Source of the DNA: an uncultured Eubacteriales bacterium
GTDB lineage: Bacteria > Acidobacteriota > Aminicenantia > Aminicenantales > UBA8522
Assembly: GCA_964580435.1 (NCBI GenBank)
Contig: CAZOKP010000005.1
Span: 5,613-69,167 of the forward strand
DNA length: 63,555 nt
Reading direction: 5' to 3'
In this document: one piece after another, positions 1 to 53,250 of the stretch
Numbering within the stretch: the first letter of the stretch is position 1
Layout of the letters: each line of letters opens with the position of its first letter
The notes under the pieces: generated by a model
What the model saw: only the letters and a program-made list of their open reading frames with translations
What the model was told of the DNA's origin: nothing
Database searches by the model: none
Made by a program: the position numbers and the translations under genes

Positions 1-1893
1 GTCTCCGGCACGAAAGCCACAAAGACGAAGATCCTTGTCCTCGGGTTCGACGGCGTTGACCCTCGCCTTCTTCAGACCTGGATGAAAGAGGGCAAGCTCC
101 CGGCTTTCGAGCGCCTCATCGGCCAGGGTGATTTTCGCCGGCTCCGCACGAGCATTCCCCCGCAGAGTCCGGTGGCCTGGGCCAATTTTATCACCGGCAT
201 GAACCCCGGCGGCCATGGGATTTTTGACTTTATGCACCGGGATCCACAAACCTACTGGCCCGTCTTTTCCGGCTCAGCTACTGAAGAGGCCAAGTCGACT
301 CTCAAAATCGGAGACCTCGTCCTTCCGCTGCGCGGCGGAAAGGTTAAAAACCAAATCCAAGGAAAGGCCTTCTGGCAAATCCTGGATGAATATGATATCC
401 CCGCGACAATTTTTAAAATTCCGTCCAATTACCCGCCCGTCCCCACAAAATCGAGAACTCTATCGGGAATGGGGACGCCGGACCTCAAGGGGTCCTACGG
501 CATTTTCAACTTTTACACAACCCAGCCGCAAGAGATCAACCAGGACATCGGAGGCGGAAGGGTTCATCAGGTCTATGTGATCGGGAATAGAGTAGAAGCC
601 AAGCTCCCCGGCCCCACCAACACCTTTAGGAAAGAGAACCCTGAGGCGACGTTGGACTTTACGGTCTATATCGACCCGGTCAACCCTCTGGCCAAGGTTT
701 CCTGCCAAGGCCAGGAGTTCATCCTCAAGGAAAAGGAATGGAGCGGATGGAAACGCGTTCGTTTCAATCTCATCCCGACGCAGAGTGTTGCCGGCATCTG
801 TATGTTTTATCTCAAAGAGGTCCGGCCGAATTTCAAGCTCTACGTCACGCCCATCAATATCGACCCGGCCGACCCGGCCCTTCCGATTTCCACTCCCGGT
901 CGTTATGCCCAGGAGCTGGACAAGAAATTCGGCCCCTTTTTCACCAAGGGCCTCCCGGCGGACACGAGCGCTCTTGACCAGAACTTTCTGGATGAAGGCG
1001 AGTTTCTCGAGCAGGATGACATGATCTTCCGAGAAGGCGAAAGAATGTTTGATTATGAGTTATCCAGGTTCGACTCAGGACTCCTTTTTTACTATGTTTC
1101 CAGCACCGACCAGCGGCAGCATATGTTCTGGCGGCTGCTGGATGAGAAACATCCGAAGTATGACCCGAAGCTCGCTTCTCAATATGGCAAGACCATAGAA
1201 AATATTTACATCGCCGCCGACAAATGCCTAGACCGTAGCCTGCAAAACATAGACCGGGACACACTCCTTCTGGTCATGTCTGACCACGGTTTCAATCCTT
1301 ATCGCCGGTCCTTCAATCTCAACACCTGGCTTCTTGACAACGGCTACCACAAGCTGCGCAACCCCTGGAAACAGGAAGAAGGCAGCCTGTTTGAGAATAC
1401 CGACTGGTCAAGAACCAGGGCGTACGGAAGCGGGCTCAACGGACTTTATATCAACCAGCAAGGAAGAGAACGAGAAGGAATCGTCAACGCAGGTGCGGAT
1501 AGCGACAACCTCATCCGGGAATTGGCCCAGAAACTGGAGCAGGTTGTGGACCCAAAGACGGGCGAGCGGGCTATCCTGCGCGCGTTTGTGGCCAAGGATG
1601 TCTACCGCGGTCCGCAAGTCGGACACGCTCCTGACATCGTTCTCGGGTTCAACTGGGGATACCGCATCTCGAATGCCTCGCCCCTGGGAAGGTTCCCCAA
1701 GGACGTCCTTGAGGACAACACCAAGAAATGGAGCGGTGACCACATGGGCGCACCCGAGGTCATTCCGGGCATTCTGGTGACTAACCGCAAGATAAGGGCT
1801 GAATCCCCGGCTCTCTACGACCTGACCGCAACGATCCTTGATGTTTTCGGCATCGAGAAACCCAAGGACATGATCGGAGAAACCATATTTTAA
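1..1893 (+). CDS. Alkaline phosphatase superfamily protein (type I phosphodiesterase/nucleotide pyrophosphatase-like), 5'-partial
   Basis: Frame is open from base 1 (VSGTKATKTKILVLGFDGVDP), so it starts upstream of the window; metal/nucleophile motifs GFDG, PPQSPVAW, MSDHGF, WSGDH. Confidence 0.85.
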   Translation, partial: VSGTKATKTKILVLGFDGVDPRLLQTWMKEGKLPAFERLIGQGDFRRLRTSIPPQSPVAWANFITGMNPGGHGIFDFMHRDPQTYWPVFSGSATEEAKSTLKIGDLVLPLRGGKVKNQIQGKAFWQILDEYDIPATIFKIPSNYPPVPTKSRTLSGMGTPDLKGSYGIFNFYTTQPQEINQDIGGGRVHQVYVIGNRVEAKLPGPTNTFRKENPEATLDFTVYIDPVNPLAKVSCQGQEFILKEKEWSGWKRVRFNLIPTQSVAGICMFYLKEVRPNFKLYVTPINIDPADPALPISTPGRYAQELDKKFGPFFTKGLPADTSALDQNFLDEGEFLEQDDMIFREGERMFDYELSRFDSGLLFYYVSSTDQRQHMFWRLLDEKHPKYDPKLASQYGKTIENIYIAADKCLDRSLQNIDRDTLLLVMSDHGFNPYRRSFNLNTWLLDNGYHKLRNPWKQEEGSLFENTDWSRTRAYGSGLNGLYINQQGREREGIVNAGADSDNLIRELAQKLEQVVDPKTGERAILRAFVAKDVYRGPQVGHAPDIVLGFNWGYRISNASPLGRFPKDVLEDNTKKWSGDHMGAPEVIPGILVTNRKIRAESPALYDLTATILDVFGIEKPKDMIGETIF

Positions 1894-25451: not shown

Positions 25452-25946
25452 ATGGCTGGTTTTTTTCAGCCGAAAAAGGGTTTCACTCTCATCGAAGTGC
25501 TTGTGACTCTGGCGATCCTTGCTATTCTGGCCGCCGCCATCATGCCGCTGGCAAAAACCGCGGTCAAGCGGGAAAAAGAGATCGAGCTGCGCCGCAATTT
25601 GCGGATTATCCGTGAAGCGATCGACGCCTACAAGAAGCTGGCGGACGAAAAAAAAATCGAAGTCGAAGAAGATTCCGAAGGCTATCCTCCTGACCTCGAA
25701 ACCCTGGTGAAGGGCGTCGAGATCAAAGAACAGGAGGGCGACGAAAAGGGCCAAAAGACCGGCCCGAAGGTCATCAAGTTCTTGAGGCGAATACCCGGGG
25801 ACCCGATGACGGACTCGCTCGACTGGGGACTCCGCTCGTATCAGGATGACCCGGATGAGGATGTCTGGGGAGGCGAAAATGTCTACGACATCTATTCCAG
25901 AAGCAGGGCCACGGCCTTGGACGGCTCAAAGTACAGTGATTGGTAG
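25452..25946 (+). CDS. Type II secretion pseudopilin/type IV pilin-like protein (GspG-like)
   Basis: Prepilin site KKG|FTLIEV with Glu+5; RRIPGDPMT. Confidence 0.85.
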   Translation: MAGFFQPKKGFTLIEVLVTLAILAILAAAIMPLAKTAVKREKEIELRRNLRIIREAIDAYKKLADEKKIEVEEDSEGYPPDLETLVKGVEIKEQEGDEKGQKTGPKVIKFLRRIPGDPMTDSLDWGLRSYQDDPDEDVWGGENVYDIYSRSRATALDGSKYSDW

Positions 25947-25950
25947 CTCC

Positions 25951-26361
25951 ATGATGGCACAAGGAAACCGGCCAAAAAACGGATTCACCCTGATTGAAAT
26001 CATCATCGTTCTCACCCTCATCGGAATCCTGCTCGGGCTGGCGGTTCCCCAGTATAAATATTCCCTCAAAAAGGCTCGGGAGGCGGTCTTAAAAGAGGAC
26101 CTTTTCGTTTTTCGCAAACTGATCGGTCAGTACTATACGGACAAGGGCAAGTATCCGGCTTCTCTCCAGGCCCTGGTGGATGACGGCTACCTCACCAAGA
26201 TTCCCGTCGACCCGATGACCAAGAGAGCGGACACTTGGGTCGAGGTCAGGGAGAATCCCACCTACGAAGAGCTGGTCCCGAACATGGAATTCGGGATCGT
26301 AGATGTCCATTCCGGGTCCAAGGACAAAGCCATAGAAGGGACAACCTACGATACCTGGTAA
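25951..26361 (+). CDS. Type II secretion pseudopilin-like protein (GspG-like)
   Basis: KNG|FTLIEI; KGKYPASLQALV, IPVDPMT; start re-called to 25951. Confidence 0.85.
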   Translation: MMAQGNRPKNGFTLIEIIIVLTLIGILLGLAVPQYKYSLKKAREAVLKEDLFVFRKLIGQYYTDKGKYPASLQALVDDGYLTKIPVDPMTKRADTWVEVRENPTYEELVPNMEFGIVDVHSGSKDKAIEGTTYDTW

Positions 26362-26371
26362 CAGAAGAGGA

Positions 26372-26971
26372 ATGAAACAACCGCGCGGCTATGTCCTGAT
26401 CATGCTCATGCTTGTCATCGCACTCATGGGTCTCGGGCTGATGGTGGCCGTTCCCGTTTGGCAGACTCAAATTCAAAGAGAAAACGAGGAAGAGTTGATC
26501 TTCAGGGGCAACCAGTACGTTGAAGCCCTCCGCATCTTCCAGCTTAAGAATCCCGGCAGCTTTCCGAAAACGCTCGAGGAGCTCGTCGAAAACAAATGCA
26601 TTCGCCGTCTTTACAAAGACCCCATGACTCCCGGGGGCGAGTGGAACCTGATTCTTAATCAGGAAGGAATCGGCAGTGTGGGGCAGCCGAGGTCGCTCAC
26701 ATCCCGCGGCTCAGCCTCGTCAAGAATCTCCCCAGGCGAGGGCCCAAAGGGCCCGTCCTTTTCTGCCCAGAGAGTCATGGTCGCTCCCCCGAAAGCTCTC
26801 TCGTCTATCCGGAACCCTCGCATCCTCGGAGTCGTCAGCACCTCCACTAAAAAATCTATTCGGGTCTACAAAGAACAAGAGAGCTACGATAAATGGCTTT
26901 TTTTCTACGGCCAGGACTCGACCAAACTCCCGGAGATCATTTATTACGGTCAACCCGCCAAGACTCCATGA
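26372..26971 (+). CDS. Pseudopilin-like protein lacking Glu+5
   Basis: PRG|YVLIMLM hydrophobic N-terminus; IRRLYKDPMT resembles the two preceding genes. Confidence 0.7.
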   Translation: MKQPRGYVLIMLMLVIALMGLGLMVAVPVWQTQIQRENEEELIFRGNQYVEALRIFQLKNPGSFPKTLEELVENKCIRRLYKDPMTPGGEWNLILNQEGIGSVGQPRSLTSRGSASSRISPGEGPKGPSFSAQRVMVAPPKALSSIRNPRILGVVSTSTKKSIRVYKEQESYDKWLFFYGQDSTKLPEIIYYGQPAKTP

Positions 26972-29134: not shown

Positions 29135-29836
29135 TCAATGCATTGAAATCAGGGGCACAAAACGAACCGGCAGAAGCTTCTTCTTCTTGAAATGCTCCTT
29201 TTCCCGGACGACGACAACCAACTCCTGAAACCCCTCCCCGACCGGAATGATCATTCTGCCGGCAGAGCAGAGTTGTTCCCGCAATTTTTTCGGCACCGCA
29301 GGCGCCGCCGCAGTCACCATGATCGCATCATAGGGAGCGTTGTCTTGCCAGCCAAAGGTCCCATCTCCGATCTTAAAATGGATGTTAGCATACCCAAGCT
29401 TCTGCAACAGTTCCTGGGCTCTTGACGAGAGCGTGCTGATAACCTCAATGGTATAGACCTGCTTGACGATTTCGGCCAGCACGGCTGTTTGATAGCCAGA
29501 GCCTGTTCCCACCTCCAAGACCGTTTCCCCGCCCTTGAGATCGAGCGCTTCTGTCATATAGGCCACGATATATGGCTGAGAAATCGTCTGTCCTTCGCCG
29601 ATAGGAAGCGGTTCATCGGCATAAGCATAGGGCTTGAGCTCATCGGGAACGAAAAAATGCCGCGGGACCTTCCTCAGGGCCCGGAGGACCTTTTCGTCCT
29701 TGACTCCGCGGGCCTGGATCTGAAGGTTGACCATGCTCTCTCTTGGCCCGGCGAATCCGTTGTCGTTCTCTAACAAGAAAGTCCCCGAATCTATAAGGCT
29801 TGCGGGTTCATCAGTAGGCTCTGGCAAAGAAGACAA
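29135..29836 (-). CDS. pcm: Protein-L-isoaspartate O-methyltransferase (start codon uncertain, may be about 29770-29734)
   Basis: VPRHFF, GQTISQPY, VLEVGTGSGYQ, APYDAIMVTAA, VRFVPL. Confidence 0.95.
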   Translation of the reverse strand: MSSLPEPTDEPASLIDSGTFLLENDNGFAGPRESMVNLQIQARGVKDEKVLRALRKVPRHFFVPDELKPYAYADEPLPIGEGQTISQPYIVAYMTEALDLKGGETVLEVGTGSGYQTAVLAEIVKQVYTIEVISTLSSRAQELLQKLGYANIHFKIGDGTFGWQDNAPYDAIMVTAAAPAVPKKLREQLCSAGRMIIPVGEGFQELVVVVREKEHFKKKKLLPVRFVPLISMH

Positions 29837-31265
29837 GTTCCTTGGCTTCTTTCTGGCAGGAGATGCATTTTCCAGAAGGTTCTTTGTTCTCCTGGTTCAG
29901 CGGAATAACCCGGATGGTGGCCATGGTCTCTTCCTTGATCTTGTCTTCGCAGGACGCGTCCCCGCACCACCAACTCTTTAGAAAGCCTCTTTTCGACTCG
30001 ATCACTTTTTTGAACTCTTGATAATCCTCGACGGCGTGCGTGTTTTCGAGTTTAAATTTCAGAGCCTGTTCGAAGAGGGATACTTGAATATCCTTGAGTG
30101 TCTGGGGAATCCGCTGGACGAGATTGTCCAGGCCGACAAAGTCCTTTCTTTTGATGTCCCTTCTGACCAGCACAGCGCGGTTTTCCTGGATGTCTTTCGG
30201 ACCGATCTCCAGACGAAGAGGAACGCCCCGCATCTCCCACTCGGAAAATTTCCATCCGGGAGTGAATTCTTCCCTGGCATCAAGCCTGACACGAAGTCCG
30301 CTTTGCCCGAGATCTTTCTCTATCTGCAGCGCTACAGGCAGAATGGTTTCTTTCCAATTGCCGATGGATATGGGAACAATCACGACCTGCACGGGCGCGA
30401 CCTGAGGAGGGAGCCTCAACCCGGAGTCATCTCCATGCATCATCACCAAAGCCCCGATCAATCGCGTCGAGACCCCCCATGAGGTCTGCCAGACATACTG
30501 GAGGTTCTGGTCTCTGTCCTCATAGCGGATGTCAAAGACTTTGGAAAAATGCTGGCCGAGGTTATGGGATGTTCCCATCTGCAGGGCTTTCCCGTCCGAC
30601 ATCAGAGCCTCGATCGCATAGGTTTCCAAGGCACCGGCAAATTTTTGGCTCAGGGTTTTCCGTCCTTCGATCACGGGAATAGCCAGCTCCGTTTCGACAA
30701 ATTCCTTGTACAGGTAGAGGATTTTGATGGTCTCTTCCTGAGCTTCCTCAAAGGTCTCGTGAGCCGTATGTCCCTCCTGCCAAAGGAATTCGGTTGTCCT
30801 TAGGAACGGACGAGTTACTTTTTCCCAGCGAACGATGTTGGCCCACTGGTTGATCAAAACAGGCAGATCCCGCCACGACTGGATCCACTTAGAATACATC
30901 GAGCCGATAATGGCCTCGGAAGTGGGCCGGACAGCCAGCCGTTCTTCGAGTTCTTCTGTCCCTCCGTGGGTAACCCAGGCCACTTCGGGCGCAAACCCCT
31001 CCAGGTGATCCATCTCCTTCTGGAACAGGCTTTCCGGGATGAAAAGAGGGAAATAGGCATTGACATGGCCGGTGTCCTTGATCCGCTTGTCCATCAGCCG
31101 CTGGAGGTTCTCCCAAATCGAGTAGCCATAGGGACGGATGATCATCATGCCCTTCATCGGGGCATAATCCGCCATCTCCGTTTTACGGATGATCTCCACA
31201 TACCATTTGGAAAAATCCTCGCTCTTGGGAGTGATCTGCTTGACAAAACGTTCGTCTTTGATCAC
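29811..31265 (-). CDS. proS: Proline--tRNA ligase, archaeal/eukaryote-like type without insertion editing domain
   Basis: IRPYG, VRPTSE, RPFLRTTEFLWQEGHT, QTSWGVSTR, C-terminal FARAY; 484 aa. Confidence 0.96.
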   Translation of the reverse strand: MIKDERFVKQITPKSEDFSKWYVEIIRKTEMADYAPMKGMMIIRPYGYSIWENLQRLMDKRIKDTGHVNAYFPLFIPESLFQKEMDHLEGFAPEVAWVTHGGTEELEERLAVRPTSEAIIGSMYSKWIQSWRDLPVLINQWANIVRWEKVTRPFLRTTEFLWQEGHTAHETFEEAQEETIKILYLYKEFVETELAIPVIEGRKTLSQKFAGALETYAIEALMSDGKALQMGTSHNLGQHFSKVFDIRYEDRDQNLQYVWQTSWGVSTRLIGALVMMHGDDSGLRLPPQVAPVQVVIVPISIGNWKETILPVALQIEKDLGQSGLRVRLDAREEFTPGWKFSEWEMRGVPLRLEIGPKDIQENRAVLVRRDIKRKDFVGLDNLVQRIPQTLKDIQVSLFEQALKFKLENTHAVEDYQEFKKVIESKRGFLKSWWCGDASCEDKIKEETMATIRVIPLNQENKEPSGKCISCQKEAKELVFFARAY

Positions 31266-31295
31266 GGAAGTCTCCGCTCTCTTGAGTATTGGCTC

Positions 31296-31324
31296 ATTCT
31301 ATCCGCGCCCCTCATTTTTGTCAA
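31296..31324 (-). promoter_or_regulatory. Sigma-70 promoter of proS, TTGACA-N17-TAGAAT
   Basis: Near-consensus with 17-bp spacer on the minus strand. Confidence 0.75.
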
Positions 31325-31408
31325 GGAACGCTCCGACCCAACCGCGCCTCTCAAGGCTAGTTCTCCACGGTGATGGGCCAATGAAAAAGAACTAAAAATT
31401 CGCCCCAG

Positions 31409-31447
31409 GAAATTCACCCCTGATTTCATCCAAAAGGGTGATTGACC
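31409..31447 (+). promoter_or_regulatory. Copy 1 of a 39-bp shared upstream element (palindrome TCATCC-AAAA-GGGTGA abutting a TTGACC -35)
   Basis: GAAATTCACCCCTGATTTCATCCAAAAGGGTGATTGACC; 35/39 identical to 48443-48481; candidate -10 CATCGT at 31465-31470 (17-bp spacer). Confidence 0.8.
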
Positions 31448-31500
31448 CATGAAAAAGGCCGTGGCATCGTAGGCTCTACACAAAGGAAAAGGAAGCGAAT

Positions 31501-31860
31501 ATGCGATCGAAATCCTCGCTCTTTCATCTGGACAAAGCAGAGAGGAAGGGCCAGGCCTTCAACCTTCCTCTCCCGACGGTCGTAGAAGGGCAAGATGCCG
31601 CGGGAAAGACATTCCAGGAAAAAACCGTGCTCTTCTATATCAGCCATAAGGGCGCTTCATTCAATCTGCCGAACGCCATCGCTCTTGGGTCCAAGCTGAA
31701 GCTGATCATCGACCTGCCCCCAGCATTGGCCGAAGATAAGAACCTGAAGCTCGTCATCAAGGGCAAAGTGGCTCTCGTGGAGGCTAATCATTCGCACCCC
31801 TCCAGACAGCGGGTCTCTCTGAGGTTTGAAAGCAAGTATTTTATCAAAGCGGACGATTGA
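31501..31860 (+). CDS. PilZ-like domain protein (degenerate motifs)
   Basis: Paralog of 33301 (FNLPLPTVVEG...GSKLKLIIDLP); RxxxR absent, YISHKG replaces NxSxxG. Confidence 0.7.
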   Translation: MRSKSSLFHLDKAERKGQAFNLPLPTVVEGQDAAGKTFQEKTVLFYISHKGASFNLPNAIALGSKLKLIIDLPPALAEDKNLKLVIKGKVALVEANHSHPSRQRVSLRFESKYFIKADD

Positions 31861-31980
31861 GGCCCCCCTGTCCTCAGTCGAAGGAAATGGATAGGCCTCT
31901 TGCCGGCGCGTTCAAGATCATCAAGACCGCGCCCAGAGGCAGGATGAAGCCAAGTTGCCTAATCTCTGTGGATGATAAGA

Positions 31981-32451
31981 ATGTCAAAAAAATCACCCTC
32001 TGATTCATCCCCAAGAGCGATTGAACTCAGAGAAGAAGCCGACGAAAATTGGTCTGCGGAAATGAACGAAAAGGAAGAACTCTCCAAACCCTCCACCCAT
32101 GGCGCGGCCAGAGCCGGGAAGAGAGAGCGCGCCTTCGAGCTCTCTCTCCCAGCTTTGGTTACGGGCGTGGATGCCCTGGAAAACAAGTTCAGGGAAAAAA
32201 CCCAAGTCTTGTCCATAAGCTCGGAAGAGGCTACGGTCTGGCTCAAGTCAAGAGTTATGCTGGGGTCTAAGCTGGACTTGGCCCTAGACATCCCCAAGAC
32301 GCTGATCCTGGAGAATCATTTCAAGCTTCGCCTCTCCGGCACGGTCATTCTCATGCAAAATGACTCGGCACGGGCTGGCAAAAAGCAGCTTGTATCCGTG
32401 CGGCTGGACAAAAAATTCCGCCTGCTTCCGATTCCTCCCTCGATCAATTAA
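31981..32451 (+). CDS. PilZ-like domain protein (degenerate motifs)
   Basis: FELSLPALVTG...GSKLDLALDIP; SISSEE replaces NxSxxG; start could be 31972, 31981 or later. Confidence 0.65.
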   Translation: MSKKSPSDSSPRAIELREEADENWSAEMNEKEELSKPSTHGAARAGKRERAFELSLPALVTGVDALENKFREKTQVLSISSEEATVWLKSRVMLGSKLDLALDIPKTLILENHFKLRLSGTVILMQNDSARAGKKQLVSVRLDKKFRLLPIPPSIN

Positions 32452-32488
32452 TAGACATCTCTCTTCCCGTCTTTGGGCAATTATTTCC

Positions 32489-32517
32489 TTGACAAGAATT
32501 CATCGATTTAATAGAAT
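32489..32517 (+). promoter_or_regulatory. Sigma-70 promoter of the LuxR-type regulator, TTGACA-N17-TAGAAT
   Basis: Near-consensus sequence and spacing. Confidence 0.75.
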
Positions 32518-32586
32518 TTTGCCTACCGGAGAATTGATATACCTCTTTGGCTCAGGGGTTAAGAAAGACCAAAGAGGGAGAGAACT

Positions 32587-33273
32587 ATGAATAAAAAACC
32601 AATAACCACGGAAGAAAAAAGAATCAAAATCCTCATTTTCTGTCCCTCTGAAATCATCCTCTCGGGCATCCTCAGAGCTCTGGAAGTGGACGCGGGGATT
32701 GAGATCACGAATGTAGAAAAGAATACGATCGAAACGTTCATGGATTCGATCAAAAAACTCAGGCCGCACGTCATCCTCTTTGCCAACACGGAGCCCCTGC
32801 CCAATATGAGGGAAATCTGCAAGGCGATCAAGGAGATCTCCAAGCTCCAGAGCAAATCCCAGTTGCTGATCCTGGGCAGTATTCCCTCCCATGAAGAAAT
32901 CGTCGGGCTCATCAATGCTGGCGCCCGGGGATATTTCGACCTCACCGACCCGTCCAGTCAACTCTCCGAAGCGATCCGCGTTATCCACAAAGGAGAAATC
33001 TGGCTTCCCCGGGACAAGATGAGCAGCATCATGGACCGGATCATCTCCGTGGTCGGAAGAGACCTCAAGGAAAAAACTCTGGACCAGCTAACCCCCACCG
33101 AATTCCAGGTCCTCAGGCTGATCGGGCAGGGCAAGAGCAACGATGAAATCGCCGAGATCCTTTTTATCAGTAAAAACACGGTCCGGTCTCATATCAAGAG
33201 CATCTATGCCAAGCTCGATACCCACAGCCGGTTGCAGCTGGCCCTTTATGCCATTAATTCTGCCCTATTTTAA
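32587..33273 (+). CDS. LuxR/NarL-family regulator with atypical (pseudo-)receiver domain, VpsT/CsgD-like
   Basis: HTH LTPTEFQVLRLIGQGKSNDEIA...TVRSHIKSIYAKL; receiver lacks acidic pocket, phospho-Asp and Lys; linker GEIWLPR. Confidence 0.85.
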   Translation: MNKKPITTEEKRIKILIFCPSEIILSGILRALEVDAGIEITNVEKNTIETFMDSIKKLRPHVILFANTEPLPNMREICKAIKEISKLQSKSQLLILGSIPSHEEIVGLINAGARGYFDLTDPSSQLSEAIRVIHKGEIWLPRDKMSSIMDRIISVVGRDLKEKTLDQLTPTEFQVLRLIGQGKSNDEIAEILFISKNTVRSHIKSIYAKLDTHSRLQLALYAINSALF

Positions 33274-33300
33274 TGAAACCTAAAAAAATCAGAGGTTGAG

Positions 33301-33696
33301 ATGAAGAAAGTTCAAAAATCCAAAAAGAGAATTCCCCTGCCTGTGGTCCGGACCAATCGACGAAGGGAATGGCGCTTTGACTTGCCCCTCCCGACGACCA
33401 TCGAGGGGAAACTCCCCCACGGAGAACAATTTAAAGAATTCACCACGCTCGAGAATATCAGCTCCACGGGAGCCTATTTCTGCCTGGATTCCGGCGTCAT
33501 CGTCGGCTCGAAGCTCAACCTTATGATCGACCTTCCCCCGAAGCTAACGGGAGGCAAAGAGGTTAAGCTCCATCTTGGGGGAATCACCGTCCGCCTTGAA
33601 GAACCGGACAAGAAAGGCAAGAGGCAAGGCGTGGCCATCCGCTTCAGCAAAGATTTCAATTTTGTTGAATCCGAAAAAAAGAAGAAATCAAAGTAA
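33301..33696 (+). CDS. PilZ domain protein (canonical c-di-GMP motifs)
   Basis: RREWR (RxxxR) and NISSTG (NxSxxG). Confidence 0.8.
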   Translation: MKKVQKSKKRIPLPVVRTNRRREWRFDLPLPTTIEGKLPHGEQFKEFTTLENISSTGAYFCLDSGVIVGSKLNLMIDLPPKLTGGKEVKLHLGGITVRLEEPDKKGKRQGVAIRFSKDFNFVESEKKKKSK

Positions 33697-33793
33697 TTTT
33701 CCGGTTCAGACCCGTCAGCCCGGATCTCATTCCTCAAGAATTGGCGAGTCTGGGCAGCGATGACATCATTCTGAAGAGCAGGCCGACCCCATC

Positions 33794-34423
33794 ATGAGCA
33801 TTTTGACCGTCGCGCTCACGGGAGGGATTGCGACAGGCAAGTCCGTCGTCGCCCGGATGCTAAAACTGCGCGCTTGCTATATCCACTCTGCCGATCGAGT
33901 CGCCCGCGACCTGATGAAACCCCGCCTCCCGGCCTGGATAAAAATAGTCTCTCACTTCGGCCCGGAGGTCCTGAATCCCGACCAAACAATTGATCGCTCC
34001 AAACTGGGTGTCATCATCTTCTCAAATAAAAAAGAGCGGCAGTTTCTCAACAGCCTCATTCACCCTCTCGTCCTGGAAAAGAAAATGGAGGCAATTCGGC
34101 GACTGGAGAAAAAAGGCCGCTACAAGATATTTGTGTCCGAGGCGGCTTTAACCGTCGAATCCGGGTTCGCCAGTTTCTTTGATAAAGTCATCGTTGTCCG
34201 CTGCGGAAAAGAGACGCAGATCCGGAGGCTGATGGGAAGGGATAAGATCAGCCGTGCCGAAGCCCTCAAGAAAATTCGTAGCCAGATGCCGCTGGAAGAA
34301 AAGCTGAAATATGCCGATTACGTGATCGACACATCCGGCACCTTGGACGAAACAGCCAGGCAGACGGAGGCTGTCTATCAAGGTCTTCTGTCCGATTACC
34401 GCAGGAAGTCGAAAACGTCCTAG
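33794..34423 (+). CDS. coaE: Dephospho-CoA kinase
   Basis: ALTGGIATGKS, ADRVAR, LNSLIHP, RSQMP, ADYVIDTSG. Confidence 0.95.
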   Translation: MSILTVALTGGIATGKSVVARMLKLRACYIHSADRVARDLMKPRLPAWIKIVSHFGPEVLNPDQTIDRSKLGVIIFSNKKERQFLNSLIHPLVLEKKMEAIRRLEKKGRYKIFVSEAALTVESGFASFFDKVIVVRCGKETQIRRLMGRDKISRAEALKKIRSQMPLEEKLKYADYVIDTSGTLDETARQTEAVYQGLLSDYRRKSKTS

Positions 34424-35364
34424 ACCAGCAGGGCGGCGGCCAAAAGGGGAATCATGATTTCGTGATGCCCGATAAAGTAAAACCCCTTCCCTTTTTTGCC
34501 CACGGGTCTCTGGACGACGTTTTGAGACGGACGATAGTGATGGATGAAATCAAAAACCGCGGTGGAAAAATCGTCCAGAGCCTTGCCCCTGTTTCTGACG
34601 AAGGATACCGCTTTGAGGAAGACTTCGGGCAGGATGACGGCTGAGCCGACGTTGATGAAGACTCCTCCTCCTTCAAGGCTTTCCACGAGAGAGCAGAAGA
34701 GAAAAAAATCAGCCAAGGATGTTTTTCCGATGGCCTCGCCGCTTGCTTCCGGATGGAAGTGGATCGTGTCTGTCCCCACAGCCACATGGACGCTGACGGG
34801 AATGCCAAGATCGGATGAAGCCGCCAGGAGGCTCAGGTGTTTATAAGGAAAGCGCGAGGCGGCAATCATTCTGCCGACTGCATCTCCCAACCCGATCCCC
34901 TGCTTGGCGCCCGCCCTTATGGCCCTGTTTAAAAGTTCCCCGGTTTCCTTGGCCATACCAAACGTCCCGTCTTTGACCCCGGAAGCGACATCCTCTGAAG
35001 TCCGGCCGGCAAAGGCGATTTCGAAGTCATGAATGATGCCGGCTCCATTCAGGGCCAGCCCGGTGACCCAGCCCTCTCTCATCAGCTGGATGATCACCGG
35101 GCTCAAACCCACCTTGATCACATGGGCGCCCAGGGCAAAAAGGATGGCTCTTTTTTTCGACTTGGCCGCCCGGACGAGAGAAATAAATTCTTTGAAATCC
35201 CTGGCGGCCAAAATGTTGGGAAGGCTGCCAAGAAATCCCTCCAGGCCGCTCGAGGGCGAATAATCCTTGGCGAAGTCTTTGACCTCGACTTTGCTCTTTC
35301 TCGCAAGGAGTGAATGGGTCCTCAATCCCGCCGAAGAGCGCTTCTGGGATGGTTTGTTCTTCAT
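34420..35364 (-). CDS. Conserved hypothetical protein, deoxyhypusine-synthase-like fold
   Basis: LGAHVIK, LNGAGIIHD, HVAVGTD, NVGSAVILPEVF resemble DHS-like NAD-binding segments. Confidence 0.55.
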   Translation of the reverse strand: MKNKPSQKRSSAGLRTHSLLARKSKVEVKDFAKDYSPSSGLEGFLGSLPNILAARDFKEFISLVRAAKSKKRAILFALGAHVIKVGLSPVIIQLMREGWVTGLALNGAGIIHDFEIAFAGRTSEDVASGVKDGTFGMAKETGELLNRAIRAGAKQGIGLGDAVGRMIAASRFPYKHLSLLAASSDLGIPVSVHVAVGTDTIHFHPEASGEAIGKTSLADFFLFCSLVESLEGGGVFINVGSAVILPEVFLKAVSFVRNRGKALDDFSTAVFDFIHHYRPSQNVVQRPVGKKGKGFYFIGHHEIMIPLLAAALLV

Positions 35365-35811: not shown

Positions 35812-35840
35812 TTGACTTGATTTTCTCGAGTTCATATAAT
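35812..35840 (+). promoter_or_regulatory. Sigma-70 promoter TTGACT-N17-TATAAT
   Basis: Near-consensus; -10 ends 9 nt before the nfeD ATG. Confidence 0.8.
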
Positions 35841-35849
35841 GAGAACACG

Positions 35850-37127
35850 ATGAAAAAAAATTCCCTTCTTCTCTTTTGCTTTGTTCTTTTGTCGCTCCAG
35901 GTCAACGCCGCGATTCTAAAAATTACGGTCGACGCTCCCATCCATCCCATCTCTTCTGAGTACATTATCAAGAGCATCGAACACGCGGAGAAAGAAAACG
36001 CCGGTTTGATCATCCTGGTCCTGAATACGCCGGGAGGTCTGGATTCCTCGATGCGGGAGATCATCGCGAAAATTCTCGTCTCCAAAGTGCCGCTGGCCAC
36101 TTACGTGAGCCCGAGCGGCGCTCGGGCCGCCTCGGCCGGTTTTTATATCGCCATCGCTAGCGATCTTTTCGTGATGGCTCCAGGGACTAGCACGGGGGCC
36201 GCCCATCCGGTCGGGGTTTCCCTCACCGGCCAAGGAATGGACAAGACCATGGAGGAGAAAGTCACCAATGACGCGGCTGCCTATATCAAAACCCTGGCTG
36301 AAAAAAGGGGAAGGTCCGTCCAGCCGTCGGAAGACGCTGTCAGGAAAAGCCTCTCTTATACAGAAAAGGAAGCCTTCGAGCTCGGGTTGATCGACCTCGT
36401 TGCCAAGAACGAGCAGGAGATCATCGATCATTTTGACAATAAAATCATCAAGCGATTCAACGGCGAAGACCTGCTGTTGCATCTCAAGGACGAACCCATC
36501 ATTGAAATCCCGATGTCGACCAGGCAGAAGTTTCTTCTCACCATTTCCAACCCTAACCTGGCTTACATCCTGCTTATGCTCGGGCTTCTCGGCCTCTATT
36601 TTGAGTTTTCTAACCCCGGGGCCATTCTGCCCGGGGTTATGGGAGGCATCTGTCTGCTTCTGGCCATATTCTCTTTCCAGATTTTGCCCATCAATTATGT
36701 CGGGCTCCTGCTCATCCTGCTGGCTATCGGGTTGTTCATCTTGGAGGTCAAGGTCCATAGTTATGGAATTCTTTCCGTCGGAGGAATAGCGGCTATGGTC
36801 ATCGGGTCCATCATGCTTATCAATGCGCCTATTCCGGAGCTCAGGCCCAGCCTTAGATTCGTCATTCCTGTGGCCGTCAGCTTTGGGGTGGTCTTTTTGT
36901 TCCTCGTCTTCCTGGTGATCCGGGCCCACGCCAAAAAGGTCCAAACGGGGAAGGAAGGGCTCATCGGCGAAATCGGTGTCGCTGAGACCGACCTCAACCC
37001 GGAGGGGAAGGTCTTTGTCCATGGGGAGCTGTGGAATGCCGAAACGACTGGAGAGATCCCCAGGGGCAGCCGAGTCAAGGTCATCCAGGTCTTGAACGGC
37101 CTTAAGATACGCGTGCAAAAAATCTGA
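35850..37127 (+). CDS. nfeD: NfeD family membrane-bound ClpP-class serine protease
   Basis: Signal peptide, LNTPGG, ARAASAG, TSTGAAHPV, TM region, C-terminal OB fold (GKVFVHGELWNA). Confidence 0.92.
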   Translation: MKKNSLLLFCFVLLSLQVNAAILKITVDAPIHPISSEYIIKSIEHAEKENAGLIILVLNTPGGLDSSMREIIAKILVSKVPLATYVSPSGARAASAGFYIAIASDLFVMAPGTSTGAAHPVGVSLTGQGMDKTMEEKVTNDAAAYIKTLAEKRGRSVQPSEDAVRKSLSYTEKEAFELGLIDLVAKNEQEIIDHFDNKIIKRFNGEDLLLHLKDEPIIEIPMSTRQKFLLTISNPNLAYILLMLGLLGLYFEFSNPGAILPGVMGGICLLLAIFSFQILPINYVGLLLILLAIGLFILEVKVHSYGILSVGGIAAMVIGSIMLINAPIPELRPSLRFVIPVAVSFGVVFLFLVFLVIRAHAKKVQTGKEGLIGEIGVAETDLNPEGKVFVHGELWNAETTGEIPRGSRVKVIQVLNGLKIRVQKI

Positions 37128-37152
37128 CTTGACATAGACTGAGGAGGTCAAA

Positions 37153-37917
37153 ATGATTACTTTTCCTATTATCGTCGTCGGTTTTGTCGTCCTATATTTG
37201 TTGAACTCGATCAAAATCTTAAGGGAATATGAACGCGGCGTTATCTTTCGCCTGGGACGCGTCCTCCCCCATCCCAAAGGCCCCGGTCTTATTTTTGTCT
37301 TTGCTCCGATCGACAGGATGATCAGGGTCAGCTTGAGGATTATTACCCTGGACATCCCGCCGCAAGATGTCATCACCAAGGACAACGTCTCGGTCAAGGT
37401 GAATGCCGTCGTATATTTCCGCGTCATGGACCCGCTCAAAGCGATCATCGAAGTCCAAGATTATCTTTATGCGACCTCCCAGCTTGCCCAGACGACCTTG
37501 CGCAGTGTGCTCGGCGAGGTCGAACTCGACGACCTCCTTTCTAAGAGAGAGAAGCTCAATGCCCAGCTCCAGGACATTCTGGACAAGCACACCGATCCCT
37601 GGGGGATCAAGGTCCAGCTCGTCGAAACAAAGCACGTTGACTTGCCCGACAACATGGTCAGGGCCATTGCCAAGCAGGCCGAGGCGGAAAGAGAAAGAAG
37701 GGCCAAGGTCATCCATGCCGATGGAGAGTTCCAAGCTGCTTCCAAGCTGACCGACGCCGCAGAGATCATCTCTCGAAATCCGCAGGCCCTTCAGCTACGC
37801 TATCTCCAGACCCTCACGGAGATCGCCGTCGAGAAGAATTCGACGATCGTCTTTCCCCTGCCCATCGAAATTTTGAAATCTTTTGGCTATGAGAAAGCGA
37901 AGTCCGAGAAACCATGA
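37153..37917 (+). CDS. Stomatin/slipin (SPFH) family protein
   Basis: [40 protein letters not shown]. Confidence 0.95.
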
Positions 37918-48322: not shown

Positions 48323-48414
48323 TAGATTTTATATTATACATTTTCTCTCTGAAATATTGAACTGGAATAGGTGAAATCGGCCTCTCCGTTCTCCCCTTCC
48401 CTTAAGAGCTCTCT

Positions 48415-48430
48415 TCACCCCTCCGGGTGA
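48415..48430. promoter_or_regulatory. Perfect palindromic box TCACCC-CTCC-GGGTGA
   Basis: Same 6-4-6 palindrome as in the shared 39-bp element, 45 bp upstream of the promoter-proximal box. Confidence 0.7.
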
Positions 48431-48442
48431 TGTTCCCATCCT

Positions 48443-48503
48443 GAAATTCACCCCAGTTTTCACCCAAAAGGGCGATTGACCGGGCTCAGGGAGCGGCTAA
48501 AAT
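48443..48503 (+). promoter_or_regulatory. Copy 2 of the 39-bp element (48443-48481) plus promoter TTGACC-N16-TAAAAT
   Basis: GAAATTCACCCCAGTTTTCACCCAAAAGGGCGATTGACC; box at 48460-48475 abuts the -35 at 48476-48481; -10 at 48498-48503. Confidence 0.8.
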
Positions 48504-48537: not shown

Positions 48538-51500
48538 ATGCCAATTCCTGACGACTATGTTCTGGAAGAGGAAGAACAGTCCTACCAGAGCGAGCCGGCC
48601 GCCCGAGAAAAGACGACGAAGAGGCTCGTCTCGGACCTGGCTCACGTCCAGATAGAAAAGGCCTATTTCGAAAAGCTGTTTGAAGACGCCCAGGAGGGCA
48701 TTATCATCGCAGATAGAGAAGGCCATGTCCTCAAAGTGAACGGGGAATTCAAAAGAATGTTCGGGTTTGAAAACGACGAAATCGTCGGCCAAACCATTGA
48801 TAAACTCATTGCTCCCCGGGATAACCTCAATGCCGCCGTTAACATAACCCAGCGCGTCGCCAGCGGCGAGAAAGTCTCCTTTGAAACGCTCCGCCGCAGG
48901 AAAGACGGCCGGTCCATCCAAGTTTCGGTCATCGCCTCTCCGATCATTGAGGAGGGAAAGTTACAGGCCATTTTTGGCATTTACAGGGATATTTCCGAGC
49001 AGAAAAAAATCCTGCAGGAGCTCAAGAACTCAGAGATGAGATTTCAGGATATTGCCCTCAGCTCGGCCGACTGGATCTGGGAAATCGACAGGAACGGGAG
49101 GTATATTTTCGCTTCCGGCAGAGTCACACAGATCCTCGGGTACGACCGCGAAGAAATCCTCGGCAAGACGCCGTTTGACCTGATGCCCAAAACAGAAGCG
49201 GAGCGAGTCCGACATTTCTTTCAGGAAATCATGGCCGCAAAAAAGCCGGTCGTCGACCTGGAAAACTGGAACCTCACCCGGGATGGGAAATTGGTCTGCT
49301 TGCTGACGAACGCCCTGCCAATACTCGACGAAAAAAGCGGGCTTCTGGGCTACCGCGGCATGGACAAGGACATCACGGAAAGGAAGCGCACAGAAACGCA
49401 AATCTTAAGACAGAACCTTCTTTTGGACGGCATCAACAGGCTCCTGCAAAAAGTCTTTACGAAAGAGACGGATGCTGATTTGGCCGAGTTCTGTCTCCAC
49501 CTGGCTGAAGAACTCACGGGGAGCAAGTACGGATTCATCGGCGAGATCAATGACCAGAATAACCTGGATATTATCTCCATGAGTCACTTTGCCTGGGACG
49601 CCTGCACAATTCCCAAATCCAACGCGCCCCTGCTTCTGAAGAACATGAGAATCCGAGGAATATGGAGTGAGGCCATCAAATATGGCGAGACCCAGCTCAT
49701 CAACGCCCCGGATTCGCACCCGAGCCGGGTCGGATTTCCCAAAGGACATCCCACTCTTCAAACTCTACTCTGCGCGCCTCTGAAACATGCCGGTCATATT
49801 GTCGGCGTCATAGCCCTGGCCAACAAAGAATTCGGTTATGACAGGGATGATGAAAAGGCCGTAGAAGCTCTGGCGACGGCCTTCGTCGAGGCTCTGTACC
49901 GCAAAAGAGCTGAAGCGGCGATCCAGAGAGAGACGGCCAAGCTCTCGGCGATCATCACCGGAATTGACGAGGGGGTTCTTTTTGCAGACCAGGATGACAG
50001 GATCATCGAAATTAATGATTACTTTCTCAGACTCTTGGGGAAGAATAAACCGGAGATCCTGGGCAAGACTCTCTGGGACATCTATGTCGGAAAGCCGGAG
50101 GAAGACCTGAAAAAATATGTCGAGATCTTCAAGAAGGATTCGGGGGCTCCCCCCGTCGAAATTCAGAAAACCTTGGGCGAGAAAGAAGTCATTTTCAGGA
50201 TCAAGCCCATCCGCCGCAATGATCAATACGAAGGTCTTATCCTCAACGTGGCGGATGTTTCCGAACTCGTCCGGGCGCGCATAGAGGCCCTGACCGCCAA
50301 CAGAGTCAAAAGCGAGTTCTTGGCGAATATCAGCCACGAAATCCGCACCCCGATGAACGGGATTTTGGGCATGACCGACCTGGCCCTCGACACCCAGCTG
50401 ACTCCTGAGCAGAAAGAGTACTTGGGGGGGATCAAATCCTCGGCAGAGTCCCTGTTGAGCTTGATCAACGATATCCTTGATTTTTCCAAGATTGAAGCCA
50501 AAAAGCTCGAGCTGGAATCGACCGTCTTCAGCCTGGAAGACCTTCTCTTCGAGACCTTGGCCCCTCTCTCCATCCAGGCCCATCGAAACAAGCTCGACTT
50601 GGCCTGCGAGATCTCTCCGAGTCTGGATCCCGACCTCCTCGGCGACCCCGGCCGGCTCCGTCAGATCCTGGTCAACCTTATCGGCAACGCCATCAAATTC
50701 ACAGAAAAAGGCGCCGTGGTTGTCACGGTCGCTGAATCGACCCGGTCGGAGAAGGACGTCGTCCTCCATTTTACCATCGCCGACACGGGAATCGGCATTC
50801 CTGAGGAGAAGCAGAAGATCATTTTTGATGTCTTCGCCCAGGCCGACAGCTCCATGACCCGAAAATACGGCGGCACGGGCCTCGGTCTGGCGATTTCCTC
50901 CCAGTTGGTCGACCTGCTTGGCGGCAAAATTTGGGTGGAGAGCACGGTAGGAAAAGGCAGCAAGTTCCACTTCACCGCTCGCTTCGGAGTTCTCCAAGAC
51001 TCTGACGAGAGGAGAATAGCGCAGCCAAAACTCACCTTCATGAATCTGCCTCTTTTCTTGGTGGAGGATAACGCGAGCTGCCGGCGCATCCTCAGGGAAT
51101 TGACATCCGGCTGGGGTGCGAAAGTGAAAGAGGCCGAAAGCGCCGACGAAGCGACCGTCCTGCTCGATGAAGCTAAGGAAAAGAAAAAGCCTTTTCCTCT
51201 CATCCTTTTGGATGCCAATCTCCCGGGGCACGACAGTTTCATCATCCTCGATTACATCAAGAACAATCCGGATATCGCCAAGGCCATCATCATGATGATG
51301 GGCACAACGAGCAACCGCATTGACGCCACACCCTGGCTGAAGGTCGGGATTTCTGTTCACCTGAGCAAACCCATTAAGCCGACCGAGCTCAATAATAAGA
51401 TCTCCCAGGTGCTCGGGCTGGCTGCCACGTTCCCCAAGCCTGCGGAGGCGCCTGTTCCCGTAATCGCTGAGCCTGTCGCCCCTCAGGTTGAGCAGCGCCC

Positions 51501-51936
51501 GACCACATATCGCGTTCTTATCGCGGAAGACAATTTGGTCAATCAAAAGGTCGCTATCTACATGCTTGAAAAACAAGGCCATTCCGTAACAGGAGTGATG
51601 AATGGAGAAGAAACTCTGGCTGCGCTGGAGAAGGGGAATTTTGAGCTTATTCTGATGGACCTCCAGATGCCTAAAATGGACGGTTTTAAAGCCACCCAGT
51701 TGATCCGCCAGAAAGAAAAGGAAACAGGTCTTCACCTCCCGATCATTGCCATGACCGCGCACGCCATGAAAGGAGACCGCGAAAGATGCCTGCGCGCGGG
51801 AATGGATGAATATATCTCTAAGCCCCTGAACGTCAAGCAACTCGCTGACACGATCGCCCGGGTTATGAATAATGAGGTCCAGGGCCACGAGGAACCCCCG
51901 GGAACAGCGGAGGTAGCTGGTAAAAGAAGACAATGA
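48538..51936 (+). CDS. Cytoplasmic hybrid sensor histidine kinase (PAS-PAS-GAF-PAS-HisKA-HATPase-REC-REC)
   Basis: H-box FLANISHEIRTPMNG, N/G/F boxes, receiver Asp in LILLD and LILMD; no TM segment. Confidence 0.95.
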   Translation: MPIPDDYVLEEEEQSYQSEPAAREKTTKRLVSDLAHVQIEKAYFEKLFEDAQEGIIIADREGHVLKVNGEFKRMFGFENDEIVGQTIDKLIAPRDNLNAAVNITQRVASGEKVSFETLRRRKDGRSIQVSVIASPIIEEGKLQAIFGIYRDISEQKKILQELKNSEMRFQDIALSSADWIWEIDRNGRYIFASGRVTQILGYDREEILGKTPFDLMPKTEAERVRHFFQEIMAAKKPVVDLENWNLTRDGKLVCLLTNALPILDEKSGLLGYRGMDKDITERKRTETQILRQNLLLDGINRLLQKVFTKETDADLAEFCLHLAEELTGSKYGFIGEINDQNNLDIISMSHFAWDACTIPKSNAPLLLKNMRIRGIWSEAIKYGETQLINAPDSHPSRVGFPKGHPTLQTLLCAPLKHAGHIVGVIALANKEFGYDRDDEKAVEALATAFVEALYRKRAEAAIQRETAKLSAIITGIDEGVLFADQDDRIIEINDYFLRLLGKNKPEILGKTLWDIYVGKPEEDLKKYVEIFKKDSGAPPVEIQKTLGEKEVIFRIKPIRRNDQYEGLILNVADVSELVRARIEALTANRVKSEFLANISHEIRTPMNGILGMTDLALDTQLTPEQKEYLGGIKSSAESLLSLINDILDFSKIEAKKLELESTVFSLEDLLFETLAPLSIQAHRNKLDLACEISPSLDPDLLGDPGRLRQILVNLIGNAIKFTEKGAVVVTVAESTRSEKDVVLHFTIADTGIGIPEEKQKIIFDVFAQADSSMTRKYGGTGLGLAISSQLVDLLGGKIWVESTVGKGSKFHFTARFGVLQDSDERRIAQPKLTFMNLPLFLVEDNASCRRILRELTSGWGAKVKEAESADEATVLLDEAKEKKKPFPLILLDANLPGHDSFIILDYIKNNPDIAKAIIMMMGTTSNRIDATPWLKVGISVHLSKPIKPTELNNKISQVLGLAATFPKPAEAPVPVIAEPVAPQVEQRPTTYRVLIAEDNLVNQKVAIYMLEKQGHSVTGVMNGEETLAALEKGNFELILMDLQMPKMDGFKATQLIRQKEKETGLHLPIIAMTAHAMKGDRERCLRAGMDEYISKPLNVKQLADTIARVMNNEVQGHEEPPGTAEVAGKRRQ

Positions 51937-52865: not shown

Positions 52866-53250
52866 CCATCTTGATTCCAGCCAGGATCTGCCCATTGATT
52901 ATTCCGAAGTCCTCGAAAGAATCGGCGGAGACGAACTTTTCCTTGAAGAGCTCCTCAAAATCTACTTTGAAGAATTCAGCGAAAAAATTGCCCTGCTCCG
53001 AGAGGCCATCGAGCAGGGAAATTTCAGCCTGATCCAAGAACTTGGCCACTGTCTTAAGGGCGCCTCTGCCAACCTCAGCCTAGCCTCGCTGAAAAAAGCC
53101 TGCTTTGCTTTGGAAGTATCCGGACGCGAAAAGAACATCGAGCAAGCCCAGAGCGCCTTCCTCTCCCTGGGGACAGAATTCCAGAGACTCAAGAATTACC
53201 TTGAGGCGTCTCCCCTGAAAAATCGGGCCGCCCAGAGATTAGGGAAGTGA
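52858..53250 (+). CDS. Hpt (histidine phosphotransfer) domain protein
   Basis: LGHCLKGASANL. Confidence 0.9.
   Translation: MSNHLDSSQDLPIDYSEVLERIGGDELFLEELLKIYFEEFSEKIALLREAIEQGNFSLIQELGHCLKGASANLSLASLKKACFALEVSGREKNIEQAQSAFLSLGTEFQRLKNYLEASPLKNRAAQRLGK

Follow-up and report, generated by a model that had tools for sequence, protein, structure and literature searches.

The 63,555-nucleotide stretch of DNA analysed here (contig CAZOKP010000005.1 of GenBank assembly GCA_964580435.1; hereafter the window, whose numbering is used throughout) carries a conserved four-gene module in which two degenerate single-domain PilZ-like genes, here called A and B, are followed by the gene for a LuxR-type regulator with a pseudo-receiver domain and a WLPR motif, and by a canonical single-domain PilZ gene, C. 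An operator box found upstream of A and B is common to an operon for a diguanylate cyclase. We are highly confident that both the module and its regulon exist. The original prediction, made from the letters of the sequence, was of three tandem, paralogous, stand-alone PilZ-like genes, one canonical and two degenerate, that arose by local duplication and then divided their labour; the conserved four-gene module with its WLPR regulator, and the operator held in common with the cyclase operon, go beyond it.

A four-gene module conserved across the Aminicenantia

The four genes of the module are the following.

31501-31860, plus strand: gene A, a 119-amino-acid single-domain PilZ-like protein with degenerate motifs
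32062-32451, plus strand: gene B, a 129-amino-acid PilZ-fold protein (the mechanically drawn open reading frame (ORF), 31972-32451, has 159 amino acids, and the start first proposed, 31981, would give 156)
32587-33273, plus strand: gene for the LuxR/GerE-type regulator with a pseudo-receiver domain, 228 amino acids
33301-33696, plus strand: gene C, a 131-amino-acid canonical single-domain PilZ protein with lysine-rich N- and C-terminal tails

This plus-strand stretch is flanked by proS (29811-31265, minus strand, divergent) and coaE (33794-34423), and only 27 nucleotides separate the stop codon of the LuxR gene from the start of C. The three PilZ-like genes are indeed clustered on one strand, but they are not strictly in tandem, as the LuxR gene sits between B and C. 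A synteny scan that took one genome per species returned 73 loci, all of them from Aminicenantes/Aminicenantia (some mislabelled), and over these species-level loci the order pcm, proS / A, B, LuxR, C, coaE / 314-amino-acid ORF is conserved, with LuxR and C adjacent in 73 of 73. In 61 loci the upstream sequence is long enough for A and B to be followed: both genes are present in 53, four have a B-like gene only, two have an A-like gene only, and two, Candidatus Aminicenans sakinawicola and one relative, have neither. Judged by this gene content, the LuxR-C pair is the core of the module, to which A and B are accessory. Median identities to the window proteins are 81% for LuxR, 74% for ProRS, 67% for C, 53% for A and 48% for B, so that the regulator is better conserved than ProRS.

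Each of the three PilZ-like proteins retrieves its own set of orthologues, drawn nearly entirely from Candidatus Aminicenantes metagenome bins (138 homologues in Aminicenantes in the case of gene A). Since A, B and C form separate orthogroups whose order is conserved across the class, the duplications that gave rise to them can be placed before the radiation of the class Aminicenantia. A recent local duplication of the trio, as proposed at first, was ruled out on the same grounds. Many of the nearest genome records (loci L001-L006 and others) are titled 'uncultured Eubacteriales bacterium' or 'Clostridiales bacterium'; these labels look wrong, as gene content and order match those of Aminicenantes bins.

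Three ancient PilZ paralogs, two of them with degenerate motifs

A, B and C are paralogs, with a similarity far beyond chance. Pairwise BLASTP gives 41% identity between A and C (E = 5e-24), 36% between A and B (E = 1e-19) and 35% between B and C (E = 1e-17), and a profile-profile comparison of the B and C families with hhalign reaches a probability of 98.5% (E = 3.4e-15). The two strings on which paralogy had been argued are present in all three proteins, namely F-x-L-x-L-P-x4-G (FNLPLPTVVEG in A, FELSLPALVTG in B, FDLPLPTTIEG in C) and GSKL-x-L-x-x-D-x-P. As had been noticed as well, only C keeps both RxxxR (RREWR) and NxSxxG (NISSTG). In A, YISHKG replaces [D/N]xSxxG and the second Arg of RxxxR is Ala in the window copy, and in B, SISSEE replaces [D/N]xSxxG and the RxxxR site reads G-K-R-E-R-A-F, which does not match RxxxR.

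The conservation of these states was counted in 120 orthologues each of A, B and C. Among C orthologues N-R-R-R-E-W-R and N-I-S-[AS]-T-G are invariant in 119-120 of the 120; the Tyr of Y-I-S-H-x-G is found in 119 of the A orthologues, whose second Arg position holds I, V, G or A (Ile or Val in most); and the Glu that takes the place of Gly in the second motif of B (S-I-S-S-E-E) is found in 118. Because the degenerate motifs of A and B are near-invariant, they are best read as fixed, selected states and not as decay. To that extent the proposed division of labour stands, as one canonical copy beside two degenerate copies under strong purifying selection fits division rather than pseudogenisation.

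The PilZ fold claimed for the trio is borne out by structural models for B and C, and by sequence for A. In the scan with the Pfam PilZ family (PF07238, cut-off 22.5 bits), C scored 26.0 bits, A passed narrowly with 23.2 bits, and B gave no match. AlphaFold2 models of B and C were built on a 121-sequence alignment, and A was placed by its Pfam score and its BLASTP match to C. Both models are all-beta, six-stranded barrels of the PilZ type. The B model, in the numbering of the 159-amino-acid form, is confident over residues 50-155, where the mean predicted local distance difference test score (pLDDT) of 10-residue blocks is mostly 90-95, has 72 residues with a pLDDT of at least 90, and is disordered over residues 1-47; the C model has a pLDDT of 80, with a confident core. 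Their best Foldseek matches in the PDB (probability 1.00, E = 7e-5 to 1e-3) are PilZ domains, including those of MotI/DgrA (5vx6), Alg44 (4rt0/4rt1), BcsA, YcgR, MrkH, MapZ and PA0012. For B, 5vx6, 4xrn (a Pseudomonas aeruginosa PilZ-domain entry), 4rt1 and BcsA come out on top, and for C, 5vx6, 4xrn, 8u0i (PA0012) and BcsA are among the matches. A, B and C are PilZ-type beta-barrels or close homologues thereof. By sequence, in contrast to fold, no PDB chain was matched by the profiles of the trio (E up to 10) or by the 121-member family profile (E up to 1), and the family is therefore linked to solved PilZ domains by fold comparison only. The family is a narrow one, as 1.84 billion clusters yielded 241 representatives at E <= 1e-3, and none of A, B and C is covered by an NCBIfam model. 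The three proteins belong, as ancient paralogs, to a single lineage-specific subfamily of single-domain PilZ proteins, and proteins of the B type are annotated as "hypothetical" in spite of their PilZ fold.

Whether A and B are blind to the ligand, leaving C as the one sensor of cyclic di-GMP (c-di-GMP), has to be weighed with care, as their variant motifs might instead bind c-di-GMP in a non-canonical manner, or bind another nucleotide or small molecule, in which case the trio would be three sensors. The variant residues are in fact as conserved as the canonical ones of C, beyond what a mere scaffold would need, and part of each site is retained: in A the Ser and Gly of the second motif are still there, and in B the RxxxR site still reads K-R-E-R, with two basic residues. 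Residual or altered nucleotide binding by A and B is thus possible, which counts against a strictly ligand-blind pair. However, replacing the RxxxR arginines yields PilZ mutants that do not bind c-di-GMP, such as TssZ R5A/R9A (PMC10912698), and the Glu of B brings a negative charge to the place that the ligand-binding Gly usually takes. Three sensors are, in our view, unlikely, and A and B are treated below as predicted non-sensing paralogs.

A pseudo-receiver LuxR regulator predicted to be blind to c-di-GMP

The regulator carries a GerE domain (Pfam, 1.1e-20), aligns end to end with VraR, DevR and NarL, and falls below every NCBIfam equivalog cut-off. In its receiver domain the phospho-acceptor Asp is replaced by Ala ('ilfANte' vs 'ilmDlv'), an exchange found in all 68 orthologues, and the acidic pocket has C-P (C-P/T) in place of DD. 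We infer that the protein cannot be phosphorylated, and its sequence is that of a receiver-like domain joined to a GerE helix-turn-helix that would act independently of phosphorylation. The WLPR motif at residues 139-142 is invariant in the same 68 orthologues, and the whole of residues 139-228 (W-L-P-R-D-K, linker and helix-turn-helix) is almost invariant across the class.

Residues 107-217 of VpsT align with residues 114-225 of the regulator, placing WLPR at the c-di-GMP motif of VpsT, a correspondence drawn from the aligned ranges and from the motif as given in PMC6237807. In VpsT the motif that binds c-di-GMP is W[F/L/M][T/S]R, and the WLPR variants QstR and BrpT are c-di-GMP-independent (PMC6237807). 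Since the Aminicenantes protein has this same variant, it is predicted not to sense c-di-GMP itself, while being VpsT/QstR-like in architecture. The possibility that it is a direct, VpsT-like c-di-GMP sensor was rejected, given WLPR in place of W[F/L/M][T/S]R.

The promoter of the LuxR-C pair is as follows.

32489-32517, plus strand: LuxR-C promoter, TTGACA-17-TAGAAT, near-consensus sigma-70-type, 11 of 12 consensus matches

In each of 67 loci a TTGAC(A)-16..18-TAnnnT arrangement precedes the LuxR gene, and by its sequence this promoter is of a strong, constitutive type, so that the canonical PilZ copy does lie, as had been stated, behind the LuxR gene and a strong sigma-70 promoter. The 5' untranslated region (UTR) of the LuxR gene (32537-32577) contains, besides a GGGG motif that is conserved among relatives, a perfect 9-bp hairpin (CCTCTTTGG ... 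CCAAAGAGG), the 3' arm of which enters the Shine-Dalgarno region. The folding energy of this hairpin is no better than that of shuffles (z = -1.2) and it has no Rfam match; when riboswitches and structured RNAs were looked for over the whole cluster (31200-33900), no Rfam family passed. Public RNA runs matched by label only, and none contains the sequence.

A shared operator box and the start of gene B

The operator shared by A and B is a 28-bp box with the consensus TCACCC-N6-TCAYCC-N4-GGGYGA. Scanning the window with up to two mismatches allowed gave three matches against 0.03 expected, at 31414-31441, 31993-32020 and 48448-48475. The first two belong to A and B.

31414-31441, plus strand: gene A operator box TCACCCCTGATTTCATCCAAAAGGGTGA, an exact match to the pattern, abutting a -35-like TTGACC at 31442-31447
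31462-31470, plus strand: extended -10-like TGG+CATCGT of gene A; TTGACC and TGGCAT-N2-TA are conserved in the alignment
31993-32049, plus strand: gene B promoter, with box TCACCCTCTGATTCATCCCCAAGAGCGA (31993-32020, one mismatch to the pattern), -35 TTGAAC (32021-32026), a 17-nucleotide spacer and -10 GAAAAT (32044-32049)

By tblastn A is present in 58 loci, and in 56 of these the box lies upstream of it on the plus strand; the two without a match to the pattern at A are L011, where A is cut by the end of the locus, and L055. The box-promoter layout of B, searched for with a pattern tuned to B, is present in 43 of the 60 loci with B, and in related loci totalling about 1.6 Mb the box is confined to the plus strand and to the regions upstream of A or B. 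At A, at B and at the kinase/cyclase operon described below, the box is followed at its 3' end, without a gap, by a -35-like TTGACC or TTGAAC and then, after 16-17 variable bases, by a -10-like hexamer. The proximal half of the box is a 7-2-7 inverted repeat (TCATCCA-AA-AGGGTGA) that ends at about -36, next to the -35, and a third, direct half-site lies one helical turn upstream of it. This geometry, a 7-2-7 inverted repeat next to the -35, is that of LuxR/NarL-type activators (lux-box, NarL). That the conserved TGGCAT downstream of box A might be part of a sigma-54 promoter was considered and rejected, as the region is without a conserved -12 GC element.

The claim that the degenerate copies lie behind a shared box is therefore right in that the box is real at both genes; in the case of B, however, the box falls inside the ORF as drawn from 31972 or 31981. 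In an alignment of 16 close relatives the box, the -35 and the -10 of gene B are conserved, the spacer is fully variable without codon periodicity, and the ATG at 32062 lies 12 nucleotides past the -10 in the window and 10-13 nucleotides past it in all lineages. For these reasons the true start of B is most likely 32062, giving 129 amino acids and an mRNA that would be nearly leaderless. The 159- or 156-amino-acid form was rejected, as its 5' 90 nucleotides align as box, -35, 17-nucleotide spacer and -10, and as its residues 1-47 are disordered in the AlphaFold2 model; positions 31972-32061, the first 30 codons of the usual ORF, are probably promoter and not coding sequence. With the same geometry found across the class, B entries of 156-159 amino acids in databases are probably over-extended, 90 nucleotides of promoter having been read as coding.

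As to the factor that binds the box, we lean towards the LuxR protein, with a confidence somewhat better than even. MrkH of Klebsiella pneumoniae is a c-di-GMP-dependent, PilZ-containing activator with a site just upstream of the -35, and one could imagine that the PilZ proteins of the module recognise the box themselves in a similar way, by means of their basic tails, with the regulon of the LuxR protein being unrelated. MrkH is indeed among the structural matches, and the lysine-rich termini of C, whose isoelectric point is 10.1, are conserved among its orthologues. DNA binding by MrkH, however, needs a second, N-terminal domain (PMC12564702), whereas A, B and C are single 100-residue barrels without a helix-turn-helix, and an operator with an inverted repeat is better suited to a dimeric helix-turn-helix protein. 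We regard box recognition by the PilZ proteins as very improbable. While the two-domain MrkH binds DNA itself, the likely DNA binder in Aminicenantes is a helix-turn-helix protein separate from the single-domain PilZ proteins.

The kinase/cyclase operon and the wider regulon

The third box of the window precedes a three-gene operon (48538-53250) about 15 kb from the PilZ cluster, which lies behind the same operator-promoter unit as A and B.

48415-48503, plus strand: kinase/cyclase promoter region, with proximal box TCACCCCAGTTTTCACCCAAAAGGGCGA (48448-48475), -35 TTGACC (48476-48481), a 16-nucleotide spacer and -10 TAAAAT (48498-48503)
48415-48430, plus strand: distal perfect short palindrome TCACCCCTCCGGGTGA, upstream of the proximal box
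48538-51936, plus strand: hybrid PAS-GAF histidine kinase with two receiver domains (Pfam)
51933-52865, plus strand: REC-GGDEF diguanylate cyclase (Pfam and translation)
52858-53250, plus strand: Hpt protein (Pfam), third gene of the operon

The REC-GGDEF protein has GGDEI instead of GG[D/E]EF, and an RKSD (RxxD) I-site five residues upstream. The predicted cyclase operon indicates that the organism makes c-di-GMP, and its promoter would tie expression of the cyclase to the operator of A and B. The same box-promoter layout precedes orthologues of the kinase in L076 (60% identity), L083 (76%) and L095 (71%), the flanks of which have diverged. Of these three loci, L083 and L095, but not L076, also conserve a GGTGAAA[TC]CG element (48340-48375 in the window), which lies about 75 nucleotides upstream of the proximal box.

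A metagenome scan limited to the exact GGGCGA form of the box gave 26 loci, each with a -35 and a -10 at the right spacing. Downstream of these boxes lie orthologues of the kinase/cyclase operon (3 loci, 60-76% identity), double-receiver proteins (7 loci) and TPR-CHAT proteins of about 1000 amino acids (5 loci, one scanned with Pfam and the others assigned by their size and similar N-termini). Two loci have an outer-membrane-barrel/SH3 protein together with a subtilase, and one has a CapD-like gene of polysaccharide biosynthesis together with a Wza-type exporter. To judge from these genes, the box regulon looks like signalling plus envelope/matrix functions.

Proposed mechanism

We propose that the LuxR protein would bind the operator as a class-II-type activator, and that C would be the c-di-GMP sensor that acts on it in trans, so that the level of c-di-GMP would set transcription from the box promoters, much as the PilZ protein TssZ acts in trans on the LuxR-type protein HinK. 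A and B, as ligand-blind look-alikes of C, would be made only when the box promoters fire, and could then either compete with C for the regulator, thus providing feedback, or carry the output to other partners, and control of the cyclase operon by the box would close the loop on c-di-GMP synthesis. Taken as a whole, a model in which C feeds the c-di-GMP input in trans to a ligand-blind LuxR activator of the box promoters, with A and B as competitors or adaptors, is a tentative one, to which we give slightly less than an even chance. The decoy role of A and B, taken by itself, is doubtful. The most elaborate version, a 'split VpsT' circuit in which a WLPR LuxR protein would receive its c-di-GMP input via the co-transcribed C, and in which a class-wide operator would drive the competing A and B, the kinase/cyclase operon and envelope/exopolysaccharide genes, seems unlikely when taken as a whole.

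It is also conceivable that the three PilZ proteins are independent adaptors for unlinked targets (pili, secretion, enzymes), that the LuxR gene is a mere syntenic neighbour, and that some other factor binds the box. Single-domain PilZ adaptors do have diverse partners (CheR1, SagS, HinK; PMC12564702), and pseudopilin-like genes lie 5 kb upstream. We acknowledge that several of our own observations weigh against the trans-acting circuit as well. The order pcm-proS-A-B-LuxR-C-coaE, together with the 314-amino-acid ORF, is collinear across the class and may reflect descent only, which makes the LuxR-PilZ adjacency weaker evidence of coupling than in a genome whose gene order is shuffled. The scan of the loci found no box upstream of the LuxR-C pair. 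As the helix-turn-helix of the regulator is invariant, no covariation with operator variants (e.g. TCCCCC first half-sites) is visible, and another regulator could bind the box. Lastly, box conservation at the kinase/cyclase promoter is partly built into a metagenome search made with a single box form. In spite of these points, C begins 27 nucleotides past the LuxR stop codon and stays adjacent in every locus, whereas A and B come and go; the proximal inverted repeat directly upstream of the -35 suits a dimeric activator of the LuxR/NarL type; and an invariant helix-turn-helix is matched by an operator that is near-invariant across the class. Independent adaptors are, in our estimate, rather unlikely.

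Comparison with known systems

The closest precedent for the trans-acting model is TssZ (PA0012), a c-di-GMP-binding PilZ protein of P. aeruginosa. TssZ attaches to the LuxR-type protein HinK and keeps it from binding DNA, an effect that c-di-GMP modulates (PMC10912698). The likeness would lie in a stand-alone PilZ protein acting in trans on a LuxR/LasR-type factor, which for the Aminicenantes pair is proposed by analogy, and PA0012 (8u0i) is a structural neighbour of C. The differences are nonetheless several: HinK is a LuxR protein with an autoinducer domain, whereas the Aminicenantes regulator is of the pseudo-receiver type; tssZ and hinK are not reported as an operon in PMC10912698, whereas here the pair is linked in the genome by the 27-nucleotide gap, the 73/73 adjacency and a shared conserved promoter; and the TssZ-HinK system is without degenerate PilZ paralogs or an operator common to a cyclase operon.

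VpsT, QstR and BrpT of Vibrio (PMC3359988, PMC6237807) are likewise LuxR/CsgD-type proteins with a receiver-like domain and independent of phosphorylation, and a W-L-x-R motif is found at the corresponding place in the Aminicenantes regulator. The VpsT regulon takes in matrix polysaccharide, and the Aminicenantes box precedes polysaccharide-export and envelope genes. In contrast to VpsT, however, the Aminicenantes protein has WLPR and not W[F/L/M][T/S]R, and direct sensing of c-di-GMP is not expected; the putative Asp site is kept in the Vibrio proteins (D58 in QstR) and is Ala here; and a PilZ gene is attached to the regulator in Aminicenantes but not in Vibrio.

PA2960 and XAC1133, the PilZ proteins of the PilZ-FimX-PilB system, are protein-protein adaptors that have the PilZ fold without a functional RxxxR / [D/N]xSxxG site. 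The tie to such non-binding PilZ proteins of Xanthomonas and Pseudomonas, which had been offered as a precedent for A and B, was not supported: no sequence relationship to PA2960/XAC1133 was detected by the trio and family profiles against the PDB, and neither is among the top 50 Foldseek matches. The conserved neighbours that were checked (pcm, proS, coaE and the 314-amino-acid ORF) include no FimX or PilB genes, no dedicated search for them having been made. A and B, moreover, are paralogs of their canonical neighbour and not orthologues of PilZ itself. Contact between a PilZ protein and a receiver fold would find a precedent in HapZ, which contacts the receiver domain of SagS. HapZ is a single-domain PilZ adaptor of P. 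aeruginosa that acts with SagS, the histidine kinase of a two-component system (PMC12564702), so that its target differs from the DNA-binding pseudo-receiver regulator considered here.

Other features of the neighbourhood

The 314-amino-acid ORF (34420-35364, minus strand) adjoins coaE in 63 of the 73 loci, with 58-88% identity, and has no Pfam match at E <= 1e-3. A second near-consensus promoter, TTGACA-17-TAGAAT (31296-31324, minus strand), is directed at proS and diverges from gene A; the TTCCTTGACAA context around it recurs in mirrored form at the LuxR promoter (inverted match I4). The pseudopilin-like ORFs (25452-26971), about 5 kb upstream of the PilZ cluster, lie between a 724-amino-acid ORF and lpxB. 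One of them has a prepilin N-terminal methylation motif (PF07963), and two are pseudopilin-like by eye only, one of these being without a Pfam match in the scan; no link was found between these ORFs and the PilZ cluster. A 510-amino-acid ORF (35916-37448, minus strand) is antisense to a 436-amino-acid plus-strand ORF (35817-37127) that is NfeD-like by eye only, and is probably a spurious shadow ORF.

Significance

Aminicenantes (OP8) are abundant in sediments and wetlands, and to our knowledge they have no cultured representative. A full-text search of the literature found no paper mentioning both Aminicenantes and PilZ. The locus described here would be a compact c-di-GMP circuit made of small parts, namely one predicted sensor, two paralogs predicted not to sense, a candidate regulator, and a defined operator that also precedes a cyclase operon, and it varies kinds of system that are already known (a PilZ adaptor with a LuxR-type factor, and VpsT/QstR-like regulators) in an uncultured lineage. 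The 'split VpsT' circuit, if true, would amount to a transcriptional switch for c-di-GMP that is self-contained and made from PilZ paralogs. Should the proposals of a PilZ protein acting in trans on a LuxR protein and of decoy paralogs prove true, this would be the second example, after TssZ-HinK, of PilZ control of a LuxR-type factor, and the "degenerate" PilZ proteins, which are widespread in genomes and mostly unexplained, would gain a concrete role in evolution.

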